Assembly: GCA_964373175.1 (NCBI GenBank)
Contig: CAYJTP010000002.1
Span: 40,402-104,401, forward strand
Source of the DNA: an uncultured Planctomycetales bacterium
GTDB taxonomy: Bacteria; Omnitrophota; Gorgyraeia; Aquiviventales; Aquiviventaceae
Length of the DNA: 64,000 nt
Direction of reading: 5' to 3'
In this document: piece by piece, positions 15,001 to 57,000 of the stretch
How positions within the stretch are numbered: the first letter of the stretch is position 1
Layout of the letters: each line of letters opens with the position of its first letter
The notes under the pieces: generated by a model
What the model was told of the DNA's origin: nothing
Databases searched by the model: none
What the model saw: only the letters and a program-made list of their open reading frames with translations
Program-made: the position numbers and the translations under genes

Positions 15001-18000
15001 GGGCGATCCCGCTCCGTGAGCAAATCGCCGTGATGGAACGATCCCTCGAAGGCGCACTGGGCAAGCCGGTCCGGTTTGAGCGGCTCTTCAGCCATGTAGT
15101 CCTTCCCCGTCTTTCGCAGAAAACCATTGACCGGCTGGCTGAGCTGGACAAGCTCACGGACCTTGAGGTCGAAAAGCTGCTCGAAGGGGGACCCCAGATC
15201 AGCAAGTATGTTCGAGGAGCCCAACTCATCAGCCAGGAAGACCTCGAGTTCCTCCAATCCCGCGGGATTCAAATTGTCTGGGTTGACGAATCGGACATTG
15301 AACTGCTCGGTGAGAAGAGGCGAGATGCGTGGTATCTGGGACTCGCCTTGAAGGCGTTACAGACAAAGACACCTCTCGAAAATGAGGATCAGCTGCTCTC
15401 CGTAGCCGACAAGACGAAAATTGTCGTTGAACACTCGACAGGTCAGGTCTTCGTGGATGGGAAAGAAGTGACCAAGGCACTTGGGGACCGAAAGGTTACC
15501 GAAGCAGCTCAGGTGGTTTCTCGCCACCCGAAGGTCCGTCACTACGTCAATCAACACTTGTTGGCTGAGGGAACGCTCACGGAGATTGAAGCGTTGGTCG
15601 ACCACATGGACCAGAAACCTCCCTACTATAAGACGCAGCCCCTCCTCAGGACGATCGATGAGATTGTCGCGTCGTACAGACCTTCCCAGCAGGCTGATAT
15701 CATCACGATTGACGGCCCTGCGGGAACCGGCAAGAGCACGGTAGCGCGCAAACTCGCTAAGCGCTTGGGTTGGCGCTACCTCGATAGCGGGGCGCTGTAT
15801 CGAGCGCTCACCCTCAAGGCGTTGGAGGAAAAGATTAAGTTGGATGATGAGATAGGGCTGTCCGACCTGGCCTGGGAAACCCAGATTGAACTCTCCGGAG
15901 ATCAGGTCTTGTTGGATGGAAAGGACGTGACAAAGGCGATTCGGAGTCAACAGGTGACCAGGGCCGTCTCGCTGGTTGCGCAACATCCAGGGGTCCGGCA
16001 ATACATCACCTGGCTGCAGCGCCGCCTGGCCAGGTCGGGAAAGACGATCTTAGAGGGCCGAGATACCGGAACCGTGGTGATGCCGGGAGCGATGCATAAG
16101 GTCTATCTCGATGCGCCGCTCAACGTACGTGCCGAGCGGCGTCAACAGGAACTCGCTTCCCGAAAGATCACGTCCAGGCTCGAGAAGGTCCGTCAGGGCA
16201 TCGAGAAGCGCGATCAGCGTGATCAGGGACGCGCGATCGCGCCACTGCGTCCTGCGCCAGGGGCCCACCTCATTGACACGGATCAGATGACCAGTGACCA
16301 GGTGGTTGACCAGATTCTCGCTGGAAAAGGAGCCGCCTACGGAGCCCTCCTGATCGATGCTGATGTGACCCTGCTACGCTCGGCCGATAAGACAGAGACG
16401 TTGAGCACCAGCCCGGCCCGAGACGCCTTGCTCAAGGTGCTTCAGCAGGGGGTGCGCGTGGCGATCATGACAGGCAACAGTGCGACACAAGCCCTGGCCC
16501 GCCTGATCGAGACCCCCGCACAGGGAGAGCAGCCAGCTCTCGTCCACATCCCACCGGAACTTCGTCACCTGGTCACTGTATACGCCAACGGGGGCTTACA
16601 GAAATTCACCTTTGACCAGGCTGGCGTTCCGCACGAAGAGGAAGCGTACCGGTCGGGGAAAGAGATTCCAGCGACCGATCGACAACGGATCCTTAAATCC
16701 ATCCAGCCGCTGCTAGACTGGTATCGCAACCGCGTTCAGAGTCTGGGTGGGCGGTTTATTAACGCACAACCCGACTTCCTCCTCCAAGGCAGAACCCTTA
16801 GGATTCCTGAGATCGTTCTCGAAGGAGAAACATCGGGTGAAGGGGTGCTGAAAATTGCCCTGATGTTCCTTTCCGCTCATCGGGCCATGGAGCTGAAAGA
16901 CTCCAAAGCCCCTGAGACCTTTCCGGATCTCCGGCAGGAGTTCCTTGAGAAGCTGTTGGCCATGCTGCCAGATGACCTGAAGGGCCGCTACAGCTTTAGC
17001 GAAGGTGGTCTCAGCAGCATCGATATCAAGCGCAAGGGGCTGGATAAATTGGTGGATGTCCGAGACTACTTGACCTCAACCAACCTTGCGCCTGAAGATG
17101 CCATCTACTTCGGAGATGAAGTCTATCCGGGAGGAAACGACTACCCTGTGACGACGATTCCAGGGCTGTTGGTGATTGGAGTCAATCCCGATCAGTCGAC
17201 CGTCGCAACTCCCGCCATCCCGGGTGGCGCAGGTGTCATGGGGACCACGTGGTGGTTAGAGAACCTTGATCAGTTGATTACCTTTCATCCCACGAGGAAG
17301 AAGTTGGTCAATCACCCGATCGCGCCCACGCCGATTCAACACCTACGTCTCCAAGCACAAGGACCGTGGCGGGAGCGAGAGACGTCGGCAGGCGTCGCCC
17401 GCGAACTCCTCACCTCTGTGGATGGGGGTCGTCTCATCGCCACGACCTATTCGCTCACTGAGCACTCAGCGCGCGATCAGGAGGCGCCTCAAGTCGCAAA
17501 AGGCCCCAACCAACTTGCGAGAAATGTGCTGGTGGATGGGGTCGTATTTCCCCTGGTCAATGACCAAGGCTGGACTCTTGATACCGCGTTAGCCCAGGAC
17601 CTGACCTCAGAGCAGCAGCCGCTCCTCCATCCAGCTGAGGCGGCCAAGGGTGCTCCCGGGACACGCTTCATCCTCAATCTCCTTTACTACCTCACGGTGC
17701 GGCTGTATGAACGGTATAACCAACTCCGGAAAGATCGACCGGCCGAGCAGCTGACTCGCCAAAACTTCTATCTCGATCACTACAAACCCTTGCACGGTGA
17801 GGAACGGTTCCCCTTGTACAACAAGGGCTATGTTGGCATCGGTAAGGACGGTAAGCTCATCTTCGGCCAGCGAACGCTCCTTGGAGGCAAGCTCTGGTTC
17901 GGTTCGCGGGAGCTGTCCTGGACCGAGCGAGATATCAACCCCACTGCTTGGAGCTTAGCCGGTCATCCGGTCATCGTTTACACGCCGAGTTACGCCGATG

Positions 18001-36000: not shown

Positions 36001-39000
36001 TCACCTCAACAATGATAGATCCAGTGACCAAGCCAGGTGGGTTTTCCGACACCTTGAACAAGCGCATCTTTGTCACAAGCGGTTGGGCTTCTTCGAAGCT
36101 CTTCCGGGCCTTAGCGACTCATGAGACAGCCCACCAGCTCTATCCTGTGGTCCTCACTGGGATCAACCACGATGTCATCTTCGCATTGGGGAACCTGCGG
36201 CTCTTTGAACTTGGCGCACGGGAGCTCGCAGGCTCACCCTTCTTGCCGACGAAAGGTGCGTCCGCTACGAGAGCCTGGGAACTGGGTCAGCAGACGAACA
36301 ATCCTGGCAACGCCTGGCTCTACCTGCGCCTGATCGCGGAAGGCAAGACGCCTGAGGAGGCCGAGGCGATCGTGCGCTCAGGTCGGCCGTCTTCGCAGGG
36401 TATTCAGGGTTCGGCAGCGCAAGCTCAGGGTCAGACCCCCAGCACAAAATTTGGCGATTTTCCCGCACAGGGTCTGACCCCAAGCCTCCCTCAAGCGAAG
36501 CCGAGGAAGCTGACGGAGGCCGATAGTTTGTTCATCGATGCGGAGGCGTGGGTGAATGGCATCCACACGTTCAAGGTCGCGGGTGCTTACCTGCAGGCGG
36601 CAGCGCGTGCATCCCTGCGCGGCTTTCTCCTCAATATCAGAGAAGCTGTGGCAGATCAAATGGCCATTGACACGAGCTTGAGCCAAGTCTATTCCGACGT
36701 GGCCAAGGACGTTGAAGAAGCCCTCGACACAACTGAGCAGTGGGTCAATGCCCCACGAACCGTTCGAGCCATCCGTGCGTGGGTGAAGGAACTCCGTACG
36801 CTTGCTGACCAACCTGACATGGCAGGACCTGTTCCGGATAGCCTCAAAGTCCAGTTGCTTGAACAACTTCAGGGGCAGCTCCGCAGACTTGCAGATCAGG
36901 TTCCGATTCGGCCGTTGCCGAAAGCGCTGCGACCCCTCCGGCCTGAACGACCTAATCCAGACCCGTGGTGGCTTGATGCGCCAGAGCTGAAGCAACCAGA
37001 GCGCCCCGAGGAATTCAAACATCGCCAACCGCAGCCGGATTCAAGCCGCCAGGTTGAGCCGAATCGCAAAGACTCTGGCCGTGATCTCCTCCTGCCGTTG
37101 TTCCTGGGTCTTGGCCTTATGTGGATGGGAGTAAGAGGAAAACACTCATACCCAGGCGACGAAGTGATCAAAGAGTGGATCACGCGATATCAGGCCAACG
37201 CCTCTGCGATCGCTAAGGGTGAGAAGAAACATCGGACCACAATCAGGCGCTGGATCAAGCGTTTTATCCAGAGCGACCCAGCGCAACGTGAGCAACGTCA
37301 ACAATGGGTTGACGCACTTCGAGAACAAAGGGATGATCCAAGGGATAAGTACCCTGGTGATGTTCAGATGAAGGAACTGATCCAGACGTACCAGGCTAAC
37401 ACCTATGCTCTTGCCAAAGCCAAGCACGTCAGTCAGTCCACTGCGTCTGAGTGGATCAACCGTTATATTCGGGGAGAGCCTAGCCAAAGCGGCAAGCGTC
37501 TTGCTTGGGTCAATACGCTTCGGAGACAAAGAGGCGCCCTATACGACCTGTACCCAGGCGATCGTAAGATGGAAAACTTACTCCGCACATACCGGGCGAA
37601 CAGCCGCTTTCTCGCTGAGGTTCTGAATGTCAGTCCCACCACTGTTTGGAGATGGATCAGGCGGTATGTTCAGGCCGATCCTCGCCAACGCGACAAGCGT
37701 TCTACCTGGGTCGAGGCGCTTCGAAGACAAAGGCGTCACGAGCAGAGGGATGAGTACCCTGGCAATCGTGAGATGGAAACATTGATCCGCACACACCAGG
37801 CTAATAGCGCTGCGATTGCTAGGGCTGTGCACGTCCATCGCACCACTGTTTGGAGATGGATCAAGCGTTTTATCCAGAGCGACCCAGCCCGACAGGAAGA
37901 ACGTCAGCAGTGGGTCGAGACACTTCGAAGACAAGTGAGTTACCCAGGTGACTCGAAGTTTGAGCGGTGGGTTTACGAATACGAGGCAAACGGGTTGGCT
38001 ATTGCCAAAGCCACCAGGGCTCATCCTGCAACCATTCACGGTTGGCTCAAGCGGTATATCCAAAGCGACCCGGAACATCGCGCAGCGCTGGTGGACCGTG
38101 TCAGAGCTCTTCGGCCAATCCTTCGCAGATGGAGGCGGTGGTTTACACGCAACTATCAAGGGCTCGGAGAGGAAGCCTACTACCAGCGCACGATCCCCGC
38201 GCTGATCCAACATTGGGGAGAAGACGCTAAACGGCTAGACCAAGCGTTAGGAGTCATTCTCACGAAGGGCCTTGAGGCTCCCCACAACCAGATCGATGGC
38301 TACTTTGCTGAACCCATCCCCGCGCTTCTTGAGGCTCACGCAAAGCAAGACCTCTCAACATTCGAGCGCGGTGTGGATGACGCTGTTGCTAAGCTGCGCG
38401 CAAACCGGACCACAATAAAACGCACGGCACATCTTCAACCAGTCACCCGTCGCGGATCCGGCACCCTCTTTTTTGAGGCGGGCAGCGCGGTGCTGGTGGG
38501 CTCGACGGCGATCGCACTGCTTGCGCTGGTGGTGCCGAATTGGGTTGTCCTTGCTCTTCTTGGCGTGTTCGGGGTGGCGGCTGCGCTCTATACAAAGTGG
38601 GTGATCTGGTTGGCGAAACAAGGGTTCGGACTCTTCACCAACGAGCAGCGTCTTGGCCGTGTGGATTATCCAAGGATTGTGGGCGCTGCTGCTGTCATCA
38701 CGATGGTGACGGCTGGGACACTCAGCATGCCGACGGCTGTGGCGGTTGTGTGGATGGTGCTGCTCTTGAGTGTGCTGTCAGCCCTTTCAGCACATACACT
38801 CCGCAATCTAGTAGAGACAGTCCTGGAAGACCATCTCCCCACCGTTGAGTGGGAATCGCTATCACGGAAGTGGAAACACGACGAGCAGACTATTGATACC
38901 ATTTCCTACGCTGGAAGTTTGATTGGACTGTTCGGCGGGGCTTATCTTTACTCCTCCTTCTTCTTCTTGTGGCTTTTCTATATGATGAGTGGCTTCTATG

Positions 39001-48000: not shown

Positions 48001-51000
48001 TTGACACCCCTGACATCAACCTGACGCTTCTTGGGCTTCTCCTCACCGGGGCCGTGGTCCTCTGGTCGCTCTATCATTGGCTTGCCACGCGCTTCCATGC
48101 GCCGCCAGAAGCCGCTCCATTGAGTCGCTGGAGCGTCCCCGCCTCTGATCGATTTGCCCTCCTTAGTGGTGTGGTCAGCTTGCCGATGATGGCCACATTG
48201 CTGCCCTCCAAAGATCCTGACAGCAAGTTGGCTCGGGATGCAGAGGATTTACGTGAACAAGGCTGGACGGCTGAGCTCGTTCGGAGCGATCTGACCACGC
48301 AGCAGCTTCAGCACACCATGGACGCCATCTTGGATGGATTAGTGTTTTCCCCACATGATCGGCCGCTCGGCCTTCCGGCCTGGCTTGGTGAACAAGGGAT
48401 CGCCGACTCCTCGAGCCGCTTACCTCGAGCATGGGTCGAGATGGTCATTGGCGAGTTGCTCTGGAATTGGCAGAGGCAGCCTGCCAGTAGTCCGTCCTCA
48501 GGCGTCGCCAGACCTCTCTTGGTCGCCTACCGACGAGGCCACATCGTGAGCGAAGAGACCATCGAGCTCATCGCGCGAAACCTTGTGGAGGAGATCCCGA
48601 ACATCCGCGAGGCGGTGAGGCCTACTGAGGCTCAGCCTGTGACGGAACGCGGCCAATGGCTTCAGCGCATGATCGCCATCGTGGTGGGGATGTTGGATGG
48701 GGAGGTGGTCATTCGATCGCATGGCAAAAAGTCTCACTTCTTCCTGCCGCAAGGAGGCGTGGGCAGTTACACCCAGCTGCTCGAGGCGAGCACGTCCTTT
48801 GACTCCTATGTGACCAAGGGCACCTCCATCTCCATCAGAATCCCGACCGCCGCGTGGTCGGCAGATGCATCGGGGCGAGCGCTCAGACAGGGCAAGCGGC
48901 TCATGAGGAAGCGACGGTTTGCCGAGGCTGCCGCGGTCTTTGCCAACGTCCTGAACCGAACGCCAACGCACCTGGGTGCACTCCACTGGTTGGCGAAAGC
49001 CGAACTCATGCAAGGGCATCTTATAGCGGCTTTGGCGCGGCCGCTGTACGGAATCGCCCAGGCCATGATGAGCCGCTCGACCCTGCACACAGAAGATCAT
49101 GTGCACGAGCTTGCGAAGCTGGATGCCCAGACTGCTGATCTGGTGGATACCTACGCTCGTGTGCTCATGGCGCGACGGCATCCTGGCGAGGTGGATCGCG
49201 CTATCGCCGTCTTAACGGCGGCGGTCCAGGAGCAGCCGCACGCGTTCTTCCTGCGGATTACCCTGGCCAAGGCCTACGAAGCCAAAGCCGTCATCCCCGA
49301 CCTCCATGAAAACGAGCGACGCTTTGCCTTGAAGCAAGCCGTCGCCATCACCCAGCAAGCGCTTGCGGACTTCTCCGCGCATCCGAAAGTCCGCCTGATC
49401 GCAGCGTACGACGCCGGGCTGTTGTCCCGCCAGGGCCGCATCGAGGAGGCCATCCGCGTGCTCAGCGATGATGAGGGACGCCACGTGAAGCGGGAGTTCC
49501 ACGAGGATCAAGTCATCCGTCGGCTCTTGGACAAACTGGCGGCAAGCCGCTTGGCTGTTGGGGTGACACCGTGGGCGCTCTCGCAAGCCCCGGCGGAGCT
49601 CTTCTGGTCGGTGGTAGCACTCGGGGCGATCGGGCGCGTGGTGTTCTCGCTGCGGCGGTGGCTCGCGGAACGCTTCCACCGCGCACCGCAACCCGATACC
49701 GAGGCGCAGAAGTTGCTTGAGGAGGCGCGATCACGACATCAGAAGAGAGACTTTGCCGGCGCCGCCCACGGGTATCGGGAGTTTGGTCATCACCTCAAAG
49801 TGCGGGACGGTCTGGCGAAGACGGAACTTGAACGCGGTCATGACTTGGATGCGATCGCGCTCGCCAGAGAGACCCTCGCGTTGGAGCAGCGACTTCTCGA
49901 GACGGAGCACTATCTCGAGCGGGTGTTAGCGGCTGAGCAGATGCCGTTCACCCTGGAGGTCTTGATCGATGCGCTCATCGCGCAGAGGAACCATGCCGAA
50001 GCGCTCACGGTCGCTTCCAACGGCATTCGCGATTTTCCGGACAACCCGCGTCTTCGCGTGAAGCAGGTGAAGGTGTACTACAGTGCCAACGACTACGAGC
50101 TGGGAATCGCCATCGCGCGCGAGGCCCTTCAAGACCCCACGTTCGAGGAGAATCCGCATCTTCACGAAGTGCTCGCGGCTGGGCTGCGGCACCTCAAGCG
50201 GGCGAAGGAAGCCAAGCACGTCATGAGTTTTGATGGCCGCACCCTCAAACCGTGGCTGCGTGGCCATAAATCCGTCTATCCCACCTTTGCTGCCATCCTG
50301 GGCGCCGATGGCCACCCGTGGGAGGGGATTGACCAGTTGATGATCAATCGGCAGGTCATCAAGCGCGAGCTTCGCGACCACCCGGCTGTCTACCCGACCC
50401 TGGCAACCCTGTGGGGTCGCGTGGGTCAGTTTGACACGGGGATTGCGCTGCTGAGCCCGGATGGTGGCCGCACAGTCCAACCAAAACTCAGCGACCATCC
50501 GGCTTCGTGGACCGCACTCGTGGAGTTACTGGAGCATAGCGGGCGGCACGCTGACGCCCTGACCCTTGCGCGCGAAGCCAAGAAGAAGTTTCCAAGAAAT
50601 CCCGTTGTCCGTCGCACGCTGCAGCACATCGAGGCCTCCTTTTACCGCCCGGGTGGTCGGGGAAGACCAGACCTCCCGATCATCAGCGCCTGGCTGGTTG
50701 TCCTAGGGCTTGGATGGTTCCTGGACCGATTCCTGGATGTGGGGACCTCATTCTCAGAAGCTGCGGTGTTTGGAGATCTCTTCTGGCCAGCGCTGGTTCT
50801 CCTCGGGGTAGTCGCAGCGGCGTACCAGCATCGAGCGCTCAGTCCTCGAACCGCTCGTCGGCTCCGTGAGGCCATCGCCTATTTCAATCAGCAAATCAGA
50901 AACAAAGTCTTACGACTAAGACAACTCACCGAAGCGGATGTTGCCGGAAAGGCCGATGTGAGCCATACGACCATCTATTGGGCCCTCAAGATCACTGACC

Positions 51001-54000
51001 CGTCGCAACAAGACATCAAGCGAGGGCTCATCCGACTGTTGAAGTCGGAACGCGCGACCATACCTCCATCCTGGCCGGGATCCCCTGAGACCCGCAGGGA
51101 GCAACTGGTCGGGCAGATCCTGAGCGCCATCCAGGATCTCACGCGACTTGCCGGTGAAGGAAAGATTCAGCGTTACTCGACGGCTGAACTCGTGGCAGCT
51201 CATGTCAGGAAGATGACCGGTGATCAGACAATTTCCGACCATGAAGTCCGGCAATTGATCGCGCATCGCAAGAACCTCCAAGATGCCATGGGGGTCTTGC
51301 GGAAGAGCACGGAGTCCTTCCACTTCCAGCCAAAGCCGCGTCCGAAGAAGACACCCGGATCGAATCCGCTCAGGGTATTCGCCGCCCCGCTGCTCGTGGC
51401 CATCGGCCTGTGGGTCGGTGGGCTCGAAGGGCACTTGCTGGCCGGGCTGGGCGTTGTGCTCAGCGTGATCGGGTTTGGCGGGCTGCTGCTGGCAATGCGA
51501 CCGGTCAGACAAGAAACAGAATCAGAACTCAAGCCAGGCGAGATTGCGGGAGGCGTCCAGCAGGAGCTTGGCGCGGTCCAAGCATCCAGCCCATCCAAGA
51601 ATCAAGGGGACCTGGTCAGTCTTGACCAACATCGCCCACAGCGGCAGGGGTGGCGAGGTATGCTTGGCATCCAGCAGTTTTCCAGTCACCTTCGCCAAGA
51701 CCGCGTCAATCTCGGCGTCTTTCCCTGGGACGAGGCCACGCAGCGGCAGTTCGCCCAGTCGTTCAGCACGCAACGCGGGCCACAACGAGATGGGGATCAC
51801 CGAGTAGGGAGCGCCCGTATCGATGATGGCCAGATGGTCATCACTCCACCCAACAGACTGTCTGAACTGGACTCGACCCAAGAGTCGAGACAGGAAGAGT
51901 CGACGACGACGGCGGCTGGCCTCGAGGTCCCGCACGCGCTGGACCTCAAGGGCGACGCGCATATACGTGGATTCCGGCCTCGAGGAACAAATGCGGGATA
52001 TGCGGCCAGTCAAGCTGCTGGCGAGCTTTCGCGAGCACCCGGATTAGATGCGGACCAACAGCCAACACTCGCCGGTGCGCAAAGGCGACCCATTGATTCG
52101 GGTAGCGTGTGGCCAATTCGGCATAGTGCGCAAAGGCCCAATCGTACTCCCGCTGAAGAGCCTCTGGAAAGAGCGCTGTTTGAACCGACATCAGTTTCAC
52201 CGACCTCCACCTCGACTATAACCGACGATGAAGAGGCTGTCAAGCCAGACCGCTTCTCCGACCTTATCGGTGGGCTCGAAGGGCACTTGCTGGCAGGGCT
52301 GGGGTTTGTGCTGAGCCTCGTCGGGTTTGGCGGACTGCTGGCGATGCGGAAGATTGGCGGAAAGGAACAGCTAACAGGCAAGGCAAGAAGCGCGAATAGG
52401 CAGAAGACAAGCCGTCAAGGAATGCCGAGTTTTTCTTCCACAACTTTCAAGCGGGCGTCGAAAGTCTTCATCTCGGATCTGATCGCACGGATTTCAACAA
52501 GGATCAGGTCGGCGTCTTTCCGAAGGTTGCCGACGTCTTTCGACAAATTATCCACCTTTGTGCGAAGGTCAACGAGCCCTTCAGCGACGAGGCGGATCTC
52601 ATGGCGAAGCGACTCGATGAGCGCGCCGACTTCGGTCACCGTGAAGGCGTCTTTGGAAGGCCGTTTGGATGGAGGCATGAACGCCATTCTACGCAGGACA
52701 GGAGCACCAGTCAAGGAACATCGGGATGACTCGGTTGCGCCAGGTGGCCTCCTGACCCCGATGGGGGGATTCGTGCTCATAGGGATCGGGCTCCTGGCCA
52801 AGCATCTGATGGGGCTTGCGCTCTTCGGGACGGTGGCGGAAGTGGTGGGCGTTGGGCTGACCGCGCTGTGGGCAGGTTGGAATACGACTCTTCATTCAGC
52901 GTCTCAGGTACTGTCGTGGAGGGTGAGAGCGCTACCGAAAGATCTCATAGCCATCACTGCGCAGCACGAGGACTTTTCCACGCAACCACCGCTCAGGTCT
53001 GATCTTCAACAAGTTCCTGACAGCCTGGGTGATCGTTTCAGCCATGGGTGGGTGGATGCGGATCACGACAATTCCGGACAGCTTCGAGGGCAGGAAATTC
53101 AGGAAGTCCCGGTCACGCGTGAACAGGATCGCGCCTTCCCGTTCGGCAAGCGCAGCGATGGTCGCGTCGGTCGCACGGGGGGACGGACGGATGACGTGAT
53201 GCCCCACCCGGCGCAGGAAGGCTTCCGTCTGTCCAGGGATATGTTCGTCAAGCAGCACACGCACAGCGAGCTACGCCTTGAAGGCCACGAATTCCCGGTG
53301 CTTGAATTGCTCAGCGGCGTACTGCAGGGCGGCGCGAATGTGCTGCGGGGTCAGCTGGGGAAAATATTTCTTGGACGTGATCTCGGTGCTCGAAACCCCG
53401 GCTCCAAGCAGCTCAAGGACATCCGAAACCAGGATGCGAGTCCGCCCAAAGCAGGGTTGGCCATGACAGATGGCTGGGTCCACGTCGATCAGCTTCTCAA
53501 GGGAGTTTTTCATCGCCACCTTCACACTCCTCCTAAGAAGGATAGCATCCTCGCTCCTCGTCGTCAAGGCACGTCTTCTGGAGTACTCAACGTGGGGTTC
53601 AGCGCAGAGACCCTTGCCGGGCGGTGGCCGGAGGGTTCGCCCATCTGGATCGCGCCGGTGGTGGGGCTGCTCGGGTGGGAGTTCCTCGTGGCGGGGTTGA
53701 AGATGGGCGGCCTAGAGGGGGTGGCGCTCGCGGGCTTTGGATTGGCACTTGGCCTCTTCGGGTTTGGCGGGCTGCTGCTGGCGACGCAACGCGGTGGGAG
53801 AGTAAAGGGGAGGGAAGCACGGCTTAGAAGCTACCGGGTTCCCAAAGAGGTGGCCGAGCGTTATGTCACTCCGGAGATCCTGACACTCTTCGAAGTGGCT
53901 GAACAACTTGGACTCAAGATCAAAGCAACCGGCGGGACCGCGCGGGATTTTGCCGTGTCTGTCATGACACAACACCCGCTTCGACTCCCTCGCATCACCA

Positions 54001-57000
54001 ATTTTGATGTGGCGATCCCACTGGCTCCCCATCAGAAGCCCTCAGAATTGTTCAACGAATCAGCCTACCAGAGGTTTGCGCAAGCCTTCGAACAGGCCCT
54101 TCGAGCCCGTGGCGTGCTCAAGCCAAACCAAAAGATGCCTGAGGTGGATTTCATGCCAGGCGTGTATGTGGAAGGAGCCGGCTACATTTACCAGATTAAC
54201 ATGAACATCCGACCCACAAAGGAGCGGCCTGAGATTGGCGAGGCATTTTCGATCAGCAAACTGGCGGTCAAGAAAGAAGGCGACGGGTTTGTGATTGAAG
54301 ATCACGTGGGCGCTATGGCCGACATCAAGGCTAAGCGCCTTCGGATTATCGCCACACCCGGACGGTTACTCACCGAAGGGATGCTGGGGAAGATGTTGGG
54401 TCGATGGGCGGATTACCGGAAGCTGGGATTTGACTTTGACCGGCCATCGAGGCAGCTGATCCAGCAGTCGGTGAACGCGCTCCGGCATACCACACCAGCA
54501 GACCAAAGCACCTTTGTGAGCTTGCTCCTCGACAACAGCCAAACGCAGCAGGATCTTCTCTTCGTGATTGACCAGTATCGATTAGACGAGGTCTTGGGGG
54601 TACGGCGAGCCTCCCTGGCAAGACGATTCAAACGGCATGAGCGCGCGTCGACGGCTTCCTCCGCGGCTCCTGATCCAGTCAAAGCCTTCGTCACACAGTA
54701 CCTGCAAGCCAACTACGGCCAGTTCAACCTGTGGGCCAACACCGAGGCCGTTGTGGATGCGGTGGTGAACCGCCTGTATCCGTCGCGGGATCCAGCAGCG
54801 ATTGAGCAAGCGCGAGAGCAGTCGGGGATTGGCGTTGCGGGAAGTGACTTTACGAGGCGCTATGATGACTATCAACACGATCAGAAACTGGAGCTGACCT
54901 ATGAGCTCATTCGAGAATTTCTTACAGGCGGAGTGGTCGTGGATGTGGGGGCTGGGAAGAATCTGTTGGCGCGGAAGCTGGCTGAAGAAATCCCAGGGAT
55001 CAAGGTGATCGGGACGGATGTCTTGGATTGGCATGAGGAATCGTCCGATCCGAGAGTCGAGTATCGAAAACAACTCACCCCTGAGCGAGTCCCTGTTGAG
55101 GATGAGAGCGCCGACGTCGTGATACTCCAAAGCGTCCTCCACCACATCACGGATGAGCATCTTGACAGTCTCTTGAAGGAGGTCCACCGAATCCTGAAGC
55201 CGGGTGGGAAGGTGCTCGTGTTAGAGAACACCTTCCCGGAGACACCCGAGGTGCTCCAGACCGTGAGGGACCAGGAAGGCTTGTCGGAGTTGAGCAAAGC
55301 CTTCCTGAGCTTAAACCCAGCGCAACAGCAAGCCTTCTTCGAATTTATGGATTGGTATGGCAACGTCTTTGTGAAGCAGCAGTCTGACATGCCCTTGTCC
55401 TTCAATTACAAGTCGATCGAAGCCTGGAAAGCACTGTTTGACCAGCATGGATTGGTGACGCGCACGGATCGGTTCATCGGCTTTACCCCGGGCCGCTTCC
55501 ACTGGCTGGCCACCGGCCTCTTCGTGTTTGAAAAAGTGTCCAGCGAGCCTCCTATCTCATCCATCCTGAAGCGCCATCCGTACTTGAATGAAACGCAACT
55601 GAAGCGTTTCGCGCAAGGCGAAGCCGGGTTTGCGGTCACCCGGAGACTGAGATGGACTTTGGAGAAGCTGGATCAGTTTCTGACCGGTTTGGAGCAGGTG
55701 AGCGGGATCCCCTTGGACAAGGCAGTACAACTCGTTGTGGAACCCGCTGAGATGTATCTGATCAAGCAGGTTCGCGATGAGCGGGCAGGCCAATATCTGA
55801 TCAACCTTGGCAATTCCATGTATCCTCCAGATGTTGTCATCCAAGCGGCTGGGTACGTAGGGACTCATGAAGGCCATCACTACCTTGACGAGCTTAATAT
55901 GGTTGACGCTTCTGGTCTTGCAGAAATGGGGGGTTCTGGTGGCACGACTCGCCGAGGCTCAATCTTGGAGCAGTTTGATCGGATGGTAAGCGACGCGGCT
56001 CGAATGAATCCGATGATGCGTGGGCTAGCAGGTCGTCCAGATCTATTGTGGATGGTGGAAGAGCTCAGCGTTGATAGTGATACGGCTAACACACTCGGTG
56101 CTCGCGTCGTCAAGAACTATCTCCCCCTTGCGGAAGCTCGATTGGCTTATCAGGAACGTCAAGCAGAGAGTCCTCGCGGAGTTGTTCCTGGTCTTGCGGA
56201 GCTCGTCCGGTATGAAACCGTCGCACGGGAATATGCATGGATCGAAGGGGTCGATGGGGCATCCCGCGAACGTCTCAAGCGCGTGGAGGAGGGGTACGCC
56301 AAGTTAGCCAAGAAGGCCAAAGACTACTCGGAGGCCAAATACAAGTTCTTCCTCGGTGTGTTCACAAGCATCTACCGGATGACGAGTTTGCTCAAACCAC
56401 GTGGTGGGCGGTGGCCGAAGCGGCAGCCGTGGTATGACCGCCTGGAAGCGCGCTACGGGTGGTTCGTGGGACAGGTGCTGGCGCCAGCGCTCAGAGAGTC
56501 CGGATTCTTTGTCGGTGGCGGGAGCTTGCTACTCAGTTGGGCCTTTGGGATTCCGCTTGAGCTGAGGCCTCCAACCGTGGCACTGCTAGCTGGATTCCAA
56601 ATCCTGTGGCACCTCCGCCATCTACCGGGTGCCGAAGGCAAGACCTTGGCTCAGAAACTCGCCGCGGCGTTCTCCGCTGAGAAACTCCTCATCACCGGCC
56701 TGACGGTCGCGCTTCCCAGCCTCCTGCTGCTAGATCCCAGCAGCCCATTCCATCCGATCGGCGTCGGCTTCGTGGCACTCATCCTCGGCGTTGCGTCCTT
56801 ACCTCACGCCTTCATCAACCTCGTCACACCTATCCAAGATGGTCGTGTGGTAGGTGTCCGCGACGCGGGATCTGATACCGTCGGCAGGCAGGCGGATGGG
56901 TCTGGTCGCACTTCGCAGGACTCACCGTTGACCATCGTGGAGATGGTGTACGCTGACCTAACCAACACAGGAGGCTTGGAAAGCTACTTGCGGGAGCTTC

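Follow-up and report, generated by a model that had tools for sequence, protein, structure and literature searches.

Can two small genes that lie entirely antisense to a very long open reading frame (ORF) be genuine when that frame is itself a gene? This question is raised by a 64,000-nucleotide (nt) stretch of contig CAYJTP010000002.1 (assembly GCA_964373175.1, Omnitrophota in the GTDB lineage), hereafter the window, in which a DUF433 gene and a DUF5615 gene are encoded on the minus strand inside a giant plus-strand ORF. From the comparison of homologous loci, we consider it probable that the pair is a self-contained, promoter-driven type II toxin–antitoxin (TA) operon of the PIN-COG2442 (VapBC-like) family, and that it is part of a clade with adaptations to life within the giant genes of Omnitrophota-type bacteria.

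The DUF433/DUF5615 pair and the giant frame around it

The putative antitoxin gene, DUF433 (COG2442; 80 amino acids), occupies 53271–53513 on the minus strand, from an ATG at 53513 to a TAG stop at 53273–53271. It is followed, after a gap of 6 nt and in the same frame, by the predicted DUF5615/PIN-like (Mut7-C-like) toxin gene (110 amino acids; 52932–53264, minus strand; GTG start at 53264). In Pfam profile searches, the ORF listed for DUF433 (53271–53567) matched PF04255 with 66.7 bits (cut-off 23.6) over its full length (1–56 of 56), and the toxin ORF matched both PF18480, DUF5615 (51.0 bits; cut-off 23.8) and PF01850, PIN (24.8 bits; cut-off 23.6). NCBIfam VapC models matched the toxin only beneath their cut-offs. 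The two families named in the original prediction were confirmed by these scores, and the ORF coordinates and family-conserved residues agreed with its antitoxin-then-toxin order, its 6-nt gap and the intactness of the pair; no frameshift or internal stop was seen in either gene. Both genes lie wholly within the plus-strand ORF 21–63065, as had been claimed for the segment 52932–53567. Among the 150 longest minus-strand stop-to-stop ORFs (at least 83 amino acids), only the TA pair and the neighbouring DUF5678 gene gave Pfam matches at E≤1e-4, and with three such ORFs in 150 the matches are not an artefact of antisense translation. We did not find a second copy of the pair within the window, and exact-sequence look-ups of the two proteins returned no record.

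The toxin retains D6, D33, the T49-R50-D51-R52-D53-F54 motif, G64 and P72, each of which is conserved in at least 93% of 91 family members; the acidic residues D6, D33, D51 and D53 fall in columns conserved in 93–100% of the 91 sequences. Its AlphaFold model (predicted local distance difference test, pLDDT, 74; predicted template modelling score, pTM, 0.67) has alternating strands and helices. DUF433 also keeps its family-conserved residues, and its N-terminus, MKNSLEKLI, aligns with the starts of homologous antitoxins, which begin at MK(N/R)..LEKLI. The start originally predicted for this gene, TTG 53567, was placed 54 nt too far upstream: this codon coincides with the −35 hexamer of a promoter-like site. 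Given this coincidence and the starts of the homologues, the true start of DUF433 is most likely ATG 53513, giving the protein of 80 amino acids.

The region upstream of DUF433, singled out earlier as a place to look for a promoter, does carry a putative one of the sigma-70 type (53539–53567, minus strand). It consists of TTGACG (53567–53562), a 17-nt spacer and a TG-extended TATCCT (53544–53539), and is conserved in seven loci, as described below. AGGAGG lies downstream of the −10 hexamer on the same strand, at 53534–53529. The promoter scan returned 3 sites, against 0.4 expected in shuffled sequences.

PIN-COG2442 has been predicted as a TA system (PMC2701414). TA function was validated for vapBC10 (ssr2962/slr1767) of Synechocystis, whose toxin arrests growth by cleaving RNA and whose antitoxin both neutralises the toxin and regulates the promoter (PMC3834315). 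As in the PIN-COG2442 systems, a DUF433 antitoxin gene in the window directly precedes a co-oriented PIN-like toxin gene behind its own putative promoter, and the toxin has the conserved acidic residues and the TRDRDF motif. The pair is thus a member of this TA family by every sequence criterion tested.

The plus-strand ORF (21–63065; at least 21,014 amino acids) dominates the window. Its listed start is a TTG at position 21, upstream of which there is no stop, so that the ORF runs on past the 5′ end of the window and is longer than 21,014 codons. It encodes a mosaic of divergent enzyme domains with hydrophobic helices between them. The in-frame Pfam domains are CofD, cytidylate kinase (260 bits), NAGPA, ROK, several methyltransferases, a response-regulator receiver, acyl-CoA dehydrogenase, transaldolase, TPR, HTH, a GT4/GT1 glycosyltransferase and an alpha/beta hydrolase, and a Kyte-Doolittle hydropathy scan gave 45 hydrophobic segments. 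Because such domains lie in frame, the giant ORF is, judged by its coding content, a real gene. For Omnitrophota, giant genes that encode many transmembrane helices along with divergent metabolic domains have been described (10.1101/2023.11.21.568195). The ‘Archaeovorin’-type genes among them (10.1101/2023.11.21.568195; 10.64898/2026.06.07.730766) resemble the ORF of the window in their length of more than 20,000 amino acids, in their many hydrophobic helices and in their mosaic of divergent metabolic and carbohydrate-enzyme domains. They differ in that most carry a divergent SecA DEAD helicase domain (10.1101/2023.11.21.568195), which was not found in the visible 21,014 amino acids (E≤1e-5; 1e-3 for residues from nt 36021 on) of an ORF that continues upstream of the window.

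Opposite the TA module, the giant frame (52932–53567, plus strand; amino acids 17638–17849) is stop-free and codon-aligned with the TA genes, and its amino acids are not conserved. By the Kyte-Doolittle scan, two hydrophobic helices end 20 amino acids before this read-through block (amino acids 17574–17618; 52740–52874, plus strand) and two more start 25 amino acids after it (amino acids 17875–17916; 53643–53768, plus strand). The latter pair lies 6 amino acids beyond the wider interval that was scored (17638–17869), and its second helix is encoded by a direct repeat (copy c, below). The plus-frame translation of 50421–54620 had no homologue at E≤1e-3 in a search of 5.8 billion proteins, and scans of GTDB genomes and JGI metagenomes returned no relative of the giant-protein flank at 53790–55400.

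Within the window, the two strands could not be separated by coding statistics. The codon-usage scores were +0.30/+0.22 for the TA frames and +0.20/+0.21 for the giant frame, and GC content by codon position was ambiguous because the two frames are codon-aligned. The strand question was therefore settled only by comparison with other loci.

Nesting, layout and selection at homologous loci

Homologues were sought by a word-indexed search of the 5.8 billion proteins, followed by a scan of metagenome and GTDB genome contigs with the toxin alignment; the homologous loci compared with the window carry L-numbers. The protein search gave only three close homologues of the toxin (59–67% identity), all on contigs shorter than 1 kb, too short for a giant ORF to win the gene call. 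In all three, DUF433 lies 6–9 nt upstream of the toxin gene, and one antisense frame is stop-free throughout the contig, as against 3–13 stops in each other frame. After the contig scan, nine distinct loci at ≥51% identity were available (the window counted; homologues 51–73%). All nine are antisense within a long open frame, nesting being defined here as an antisense frame with no stop along the entire contig or for more than 12 kb. The open antisense spans reach 17,068 nt in L006 (GC 0.44), 12,660 nt in L004, 12,093 nt in L084 and 5,050 nt in L086, and host GC at the nested loci ranges from 0.44 to 0.65. At loci of ≤38% identity, in contrast, the pair is nested in just 1 of 81, with antisense open spans of 78–996 nt elsewhere (close versus distant homologues, Fisher p=1.4e-11). 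The exception is L039, where 18,750 nt are open on the antisense strand at a GC of 0.41.

The giant frames at these loci are real genes by the same reasoning as in the window: most of the longer ones carry in-frame domains (signal peptidase II, HATPase, NUDIX, Rce1-like, TPR, GNAT and amino-acid kinase), the giant frame of L084 having no Pfam match at 1e-5. As to the hosts, L085 is recorded as Candidatus Omnitrophota and L086 as an uncultured Planctomycetia, and L091, a locus of the second nested module described below, as Candidatus Omnitrophica (GCA_016180575.1, JACPAY010000003.1); the window itself contains no marker gene. The TA genes on long contigs, such as L004 (46 kb) and L006 (162 kb), were found only through the DNA scan. 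Database proteins close to this nested module, or to a second one described below, come almost only from contigs of 0.5–3 kb, a bias consistent with gene callers discarding genes that are nested in a giant ORF.

We observed that the homology among the giant ORFs is limited to the TA block (giant residues 17638–17849); thousands of flanking residues are dissimilar, and the position of the module within the giant ORFs is not conserved. Across the block, identity is 51–78% in the TA frame and 26–42% in the giant frame. The antitoxin-first order is kept at each homologous locus whose upstream region is present. A promoter of the pattern cTTGAC[AGC]-N17/18-TAnnCT is found 11–45 nt upstream of the DUF433 start at seven loci (the window, L002, L004, L006, L084, L085 and L086). 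In a DNA alignment of eight loci, conservation extends from the −35 hexamer to the stop codon of the toxin and vanishes outside, which delimits a unit of about 640–700 bp made up of promoter, antitoxin gene and toxin gene. The GC content of the module matches that of its host in each genome (0.46–0.65), which argues for long residence and not for recent arrival. In L002, L004, L006, L085 and L086, but not in L084 or L039, at least one side of the module has a hydrophobic helix of the giant protein within 60 amino acids. L086 (4366–4636) and L005 (280–468) each have a further, more diverged DUF433 gene in the same giant ORF, so that one giant gene can hold several such modules; a 77-nt stretch of L086, 2.2 kb away, duplicates the promoter region with 81% identity.

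Selection was measured from a codon alignment of seven distinct copies, as the ratio of nonsynonymous to synonymous substitution rates (dN/dS; Nei-Gojobori). The ratio was 0.10–0.38 in the TA frame and 0.7–1.45 in the giant frame, and differences at TA codon positions 1, 2 and 3 numbered 1299, 856 and 2325. Taken together, the ratios and the codon-position pattern show the TA proteins to be under purifying selection, behind a promoter that is likewise conserved, and indicate that the sequence of the giant protein drifts freely here.

The giant frame is constrained in a different manner. As the TA and giant frames are codon-aligned, a TTA, CTA or TCA codon in a TA gene would read as a stop in the giant frame. 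These three codons are absent from every nested copy, which leaves the giant frame without a stop, whereas only 4 of the 74 free-standing pairs lack them. Under the host's own codon usage, the chance of such stop-freeness is 9e-4 for L086, 2e-4 for L006 and 6e-8 for L039; over the nine copies it spans 0.1 to 5.6e-8, with a product of 6e-23. This codon avoidance shows, at the level of comparative data, that the giant frame is held open by selection, from which it follows that ribosomes should traverse the TA region. Both overlapping frames are thus under selection, the TA frame by amino acid and the giant frame by stop exclusion only.

The layout of the pair differs accordingly. In the scanned loci, the two genes of free-standing DUF433/DUF5615 pairs are in different frames in 71 of 74 cases, usually with a 4-nt overlap, and share one frame in three. 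Nested pairs share one frame, aligned with the giant ORF, in 9 of 9 (p=6.7e-10), with a spacing of 1–16 nt. The layout that the original prediction had called canonical for TA pairs therefore holds for gene order and not for arrangement: in free-standing PIN-COG2442 pairs the genes are in different frames with a 4-nt overlap, and TTA, CTA and TCA occur freely, whereas the clade of the window has spaced genes in one frame, no stop on the opposite strand and no known member outside giant ORFs. The aligned register is probably the cheapest to keep open, because synonymous changes alone suffice to avoid stops in it. The toxin of L039 has the same nested layout with at most 35% identity to the nested clade and at most 41% to free-standing toxins; as it is no nearer to the former than to the latter, nesting and its layout arose, or were filtered for, more than once.

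Embedded antisense genes are known from E. coli O157:H7 and Pseudomonas aeruginosa (PMC9927249, PMC8850804). Like the pair in the window, each is a complete gene within a longer gene of the opposite strand, is under selection and is routinely discarded by gene callers. Unlike it, they are described as evolutionarily novel ORFs within annotated genes, whereas the genes in the window belong to an old and widespread family. The roles are also reversed, since here it is the mother gene that is unconstrained and kept only stop-free. A de novo origin of the nested genes by overprinting was ruled out: their families are widespread, and the loci examined include 74 free-standing relatives.

Repeats and other nested genes in the window

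Three copies of a direct repeat of about 85 nt were found on the plus strand, in agreement with the flanking repeat reported earlier: copy a at 51415–51499, copy b at 52267–52351 (89% identical to copy a) and copy c at 53704–53788 (66% identical to copy a), where the giant frame encodes GGLEGVALAGFGLALGLFGFGGLLLA. In the giant frame, the repeats yield a hydrophobic helix, GGLEGxLLAGLGxVLSxxGFGGLLLA. They are spaced by 0.85–1.4 kb and bracket both blocks of minus-strand genes. Their 18-mer core has three occurrences and none elsewhere in the window at ≤1 mismatch (0.10 expected). The 89% identity of copies a and b suggests a recent duplication tied to the small-gene cassettes. No attC-like hairpin was found in the repeats on either strand (folding z −1.3 to +1.6).

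A second nested module (51522–52200, minus strand) is situated between copies a and b. It comprises a DUF5678 gene (51946–52200; 84 amino acids; Pfam, 26.2 bits) and, overlapping it, a retropepsin-like gene with a DTGA motif (51522–52013). The retropepsin-like ORF has 35 homologues at 55–74% identity, which are without precomputed Pfam domains. In five of the six homologous contexts fetched (L091–L096), this module too is antisense within a long open frame; in the remaining one, L096, the open frame around it measures only 915 nt. At L091 (7465–11890), the NCBI annotation has two giant genes (18,166 and 6,471 amino acids) with four small genes of the opposite strand between them. In fact, the downstream giant frame has no stop from 11890 across the four small genes and overlaps the upstream giant ORF by ~311 nt in a different frame, which points to a frameshift or to two abutting giant genes.

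The space between copies b and c holds a small coiled-coil ORF (52415–52714, minus strand) together with two of the giant-frame helices and the TA module. The coiled-coil ORF probably starts at ATG 52678 (87 amino acids), has a basic N-terminus and an ‘FTVTEV’ motif, and had no Pfam or NCBIfam match. A strong promoter-like TTGACT, 17 nt, TAGAAT at 52714–52686 ends 8 nt before this ATG, suggesting a leaderless transcript. Coiled-coil ORFs that look similar by eye adjoin the TA module in L084 (9995–10411) and L039 (8361–8780). By tblastn, the coiled-coil, DUF5678 and retropepsin-like ORFs of the window had no relatives in the TA-bearing loci, so that the modules travel separately.

Short GC-rich, lineage-specific motifs recur along the giant ORFs in constant codon phase in L039, L084 (1–9916) and L091 (7475–10525). 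In L039, where the phase-locked motif is GCCTCGCCGCTG, the sequence GCCTCGCCGCT(G), encoding ASPL, occurs 19 times in 18.7 kb at a GC of 0.41 (0.17 expected); in L084, CCGCGCCGAGGTGCGG, encoding RAEVR, occurs 5 times. Two motif copies tightly bracket the TA module in both of these loci. Such motifs could be junction or recombination sites. Tight bracketing by direct repeats was rejected as a general rule, as it is confined to L084 and L039 and absent from six of the eight loci tested (the window and five others). Elsewhere in the window, at ~37,600–38,400 (plus strand), about five tandem HTH units of ~60 amino acids each lie inside the giant protein; their consensus, YPGD...QAN..AIAK...T..RWIKR(F/Y)IQSDP, matches Pfam HTH_23 and HTH_29.

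Alternative explanations, proposed role and meaning

The original prediction took the pair for a typical passenger of mobile DNA. The corresponding explanation, namely that a recently inserted mobile segment brought in the pair and that luck and GC-rich codon usage left the giant ORF unbroken, has some basis: TA pairs are commonly mobile (PMC2701414), the three ~85-nt repeats bracket the minus-strand blocks with copies a and b 89% identical, and for the window copy considered alone the chance of lacking antisense stops is about 0.08. We nevertheless consider it quite improbable, since every close homologue is nested likewise across a GC range of 0.44–0.65, module GC matches host GC in each genome, the same-frame layout is specialised, and purifying selection has been maintained over 30–50% protein divergence; no transposase, integrase or terminal inverted repeats were found in the window. 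With all known members of the clade nested in giant ORFs, the claim of a typical passenger was not supported as worded. An integron-like array, in which recombination would take place at the repeats and the TA pair would be one of several cassettes, would account for small co-oriented genes between direct repeats at 0.85–1.4 kb spacing and for the phase-locked motifs that tightly bracket the module in L084 and L039. It is made very unlikely by the missing attC-like hairpins, by the lack of a Pfam match to an integrase (IntI tyrosine recombinase) on either strand of the window, by the six of eight loci without tight bracketing and by the lack of translation through integron cassettes. Chromosomal integrons, such as the Vibrio superintegron, typically contain TA cassettes, which are thought to protect large dispensable arrays from deletion. 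The window resembles these integrons in having promoter-bearing pairs among small co-oriented cassettes separated by direct repeats; it differs in the absence of attC-like hairpins and integrase and in that the array is part of a translated ORF.

The module might instead serve chiefly as a regulator of the giant gene, by head-on antisense transcription or by PIN RNase cutting of the giant mRNA, with addiction secondary. The conserved promoter does point against the direction of the giant gene and the association with giant ORFs is exclusive; cleavage of the giant product has been raised, at the protein level only, in 10.1101/2023.11.21.568195. We regard a regulatory main role as unlikely, because there is one module per ~63 kb in the window, its position within giant ORFs varies, small genes unrelated to it show the same kind of nesting, and the RNase has no tie to the host transcript. 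Another possibility is that the TA cluster merely separates two giant genes, the open frame across it being meaningless. This would agree with the annotation of L091 as two giant genes on either side of the small ones and with the lack of homologues for the plus-frame translation around the module. It is rendered highly improbable by the L091 frame, which is really open through its small genes, by the chance that a frame would run without a stop past four antisense genes of which two are out of register (~1e-7, a rough estimate from control-region stop densities), and by the avoidance of TTA, CTA and TCA in low-GC hosts, which would otherwise be unexplained. If what is conserved were a giant-protein domain, with the minus-strand TA similarity incidental, this would fit the TA block being the sole part common to the giant ORFs. 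This reading is refuted by a giant-frame dN/dS of about 1 and by the concentration of substitutions at TA third positions; two independent Pfam families well above their cut-offs and the promoter conserved upstream also speak against it, and we assign it a negligible probability.

A nested TA operon, which we prefer, also has points that weigh against it. For the window alone, chance would leave the aligned antisense frame without a stop at P about 0.08, which is only mildly improbable, so that the stop-avoidance argument leans on the other loci, and several of the supporting contigs are shorter than 1 kb, where nesting means open over the whole contig only. At position 8 of the toxin, 80% of the family have Asp and most nested copies Asn; the window has His, which may point to altered activity. 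A Foldseek search with the toxin model (pLDDT 74) against PDB gave nothing at E≤1e-3 and generic alpha/beta folds only, and sequence matches in PDB were weak (2ga1, DUF433, E=0.1; 5af3, VapBC49, E=0.44). Finally, the toxin of L006 (9992–10201) has lost its first 44 codons in frame, including the LLDEN motif, while DUF433 is intact and the giant frame is still open. The toxin is therefore dispensable in at least one lineage, and L006 looks like a degenerating toxin beside a retained antitoxin.

Within the nested operon, as judged from the family, DUF433 would be a DNA-binding antitoxin and DUF5615 a PIN-like RNase toxin. The toxin would cleave RNA and arrest growth; DUF433, the labile partner, would neutralise it by binding and would also bind and regulate the promoter. 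Ribosomes on the giant mRNA would read straight through the module and produce an unconstrained loop of ~210 amino acids, which in the window would lie between hydrophobic helices. The module could persist in a giant gene only because its layout leaves the host protein untruncated. By analogy with the TA cassettes of chromosomal integrons, loss of the DNA would free the toxin, and the module may thus resist its own deletion together with that of the surrounding giant-gene DNA, acting as an anchor inside a very large, deletion-prone gene; we infer this anti-deletion role from the analogy, and the stabilising effect suggested in the original prediction is in this sense reasonable.

A broader and more tentative proposal, which we hold to be possible though rather doubtful, is that giant genes host a dedicated set of promoter-bearing, backwards small-gene cassettes and grow by in-frame capture in either orientation, with TA pairs as anti-deletion anchors. 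The set would comprise the PIN-DUF433 TA pair, the DUF5678/retropepsin-like pair and the coiled-coil genes, all in stop-free register and placed between lineage-specific, phase-locked junction repeats, and the anchors might help to keep a gene of 60–400 kb intact in a small genome.

No earlier account of nested genes in giant genes came from the literature searches, which addressed DUF433 in combination with DUF5615 as well as antisense or nested genes in Omnitrophota giant genes, most subscription journals lying outside their coverage. The words ‘antisense’, ‘opposite strand’ and ‘nested’ are absent from the main texts of 10.1101/2023.11.21.568195 and 10.64898/2026.06.07.730766. The original prediction was right on the identity of the genes and too modest on their status, as the comparative data place the pair in a TA clade that is specialised for giant ORFs. 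Among instances of long antisense nesting in bacteria, the present one is perhaps the clearest to date in which both partners are readable from comparative data. The TA module appears to reshape its own layout (frame, spacing and codon choice) to fit its host gene, a selfish or addictive strategy that resembles inteins and introns in effect and would work by translation straight across the insert. Stop avoidance is, in turn, indirect evidence for end-to-end translation of the giant ORFs. Since annotation pipelines suppress nested genes, such genes are probably undercounted in giant ORFs, and if the cassette proposal is true, standard gene callers would be discarding a hidden gene layer. If TA pairs do guard against deletion, they would help to explain how small genomes keep genes of at least 60 kb.

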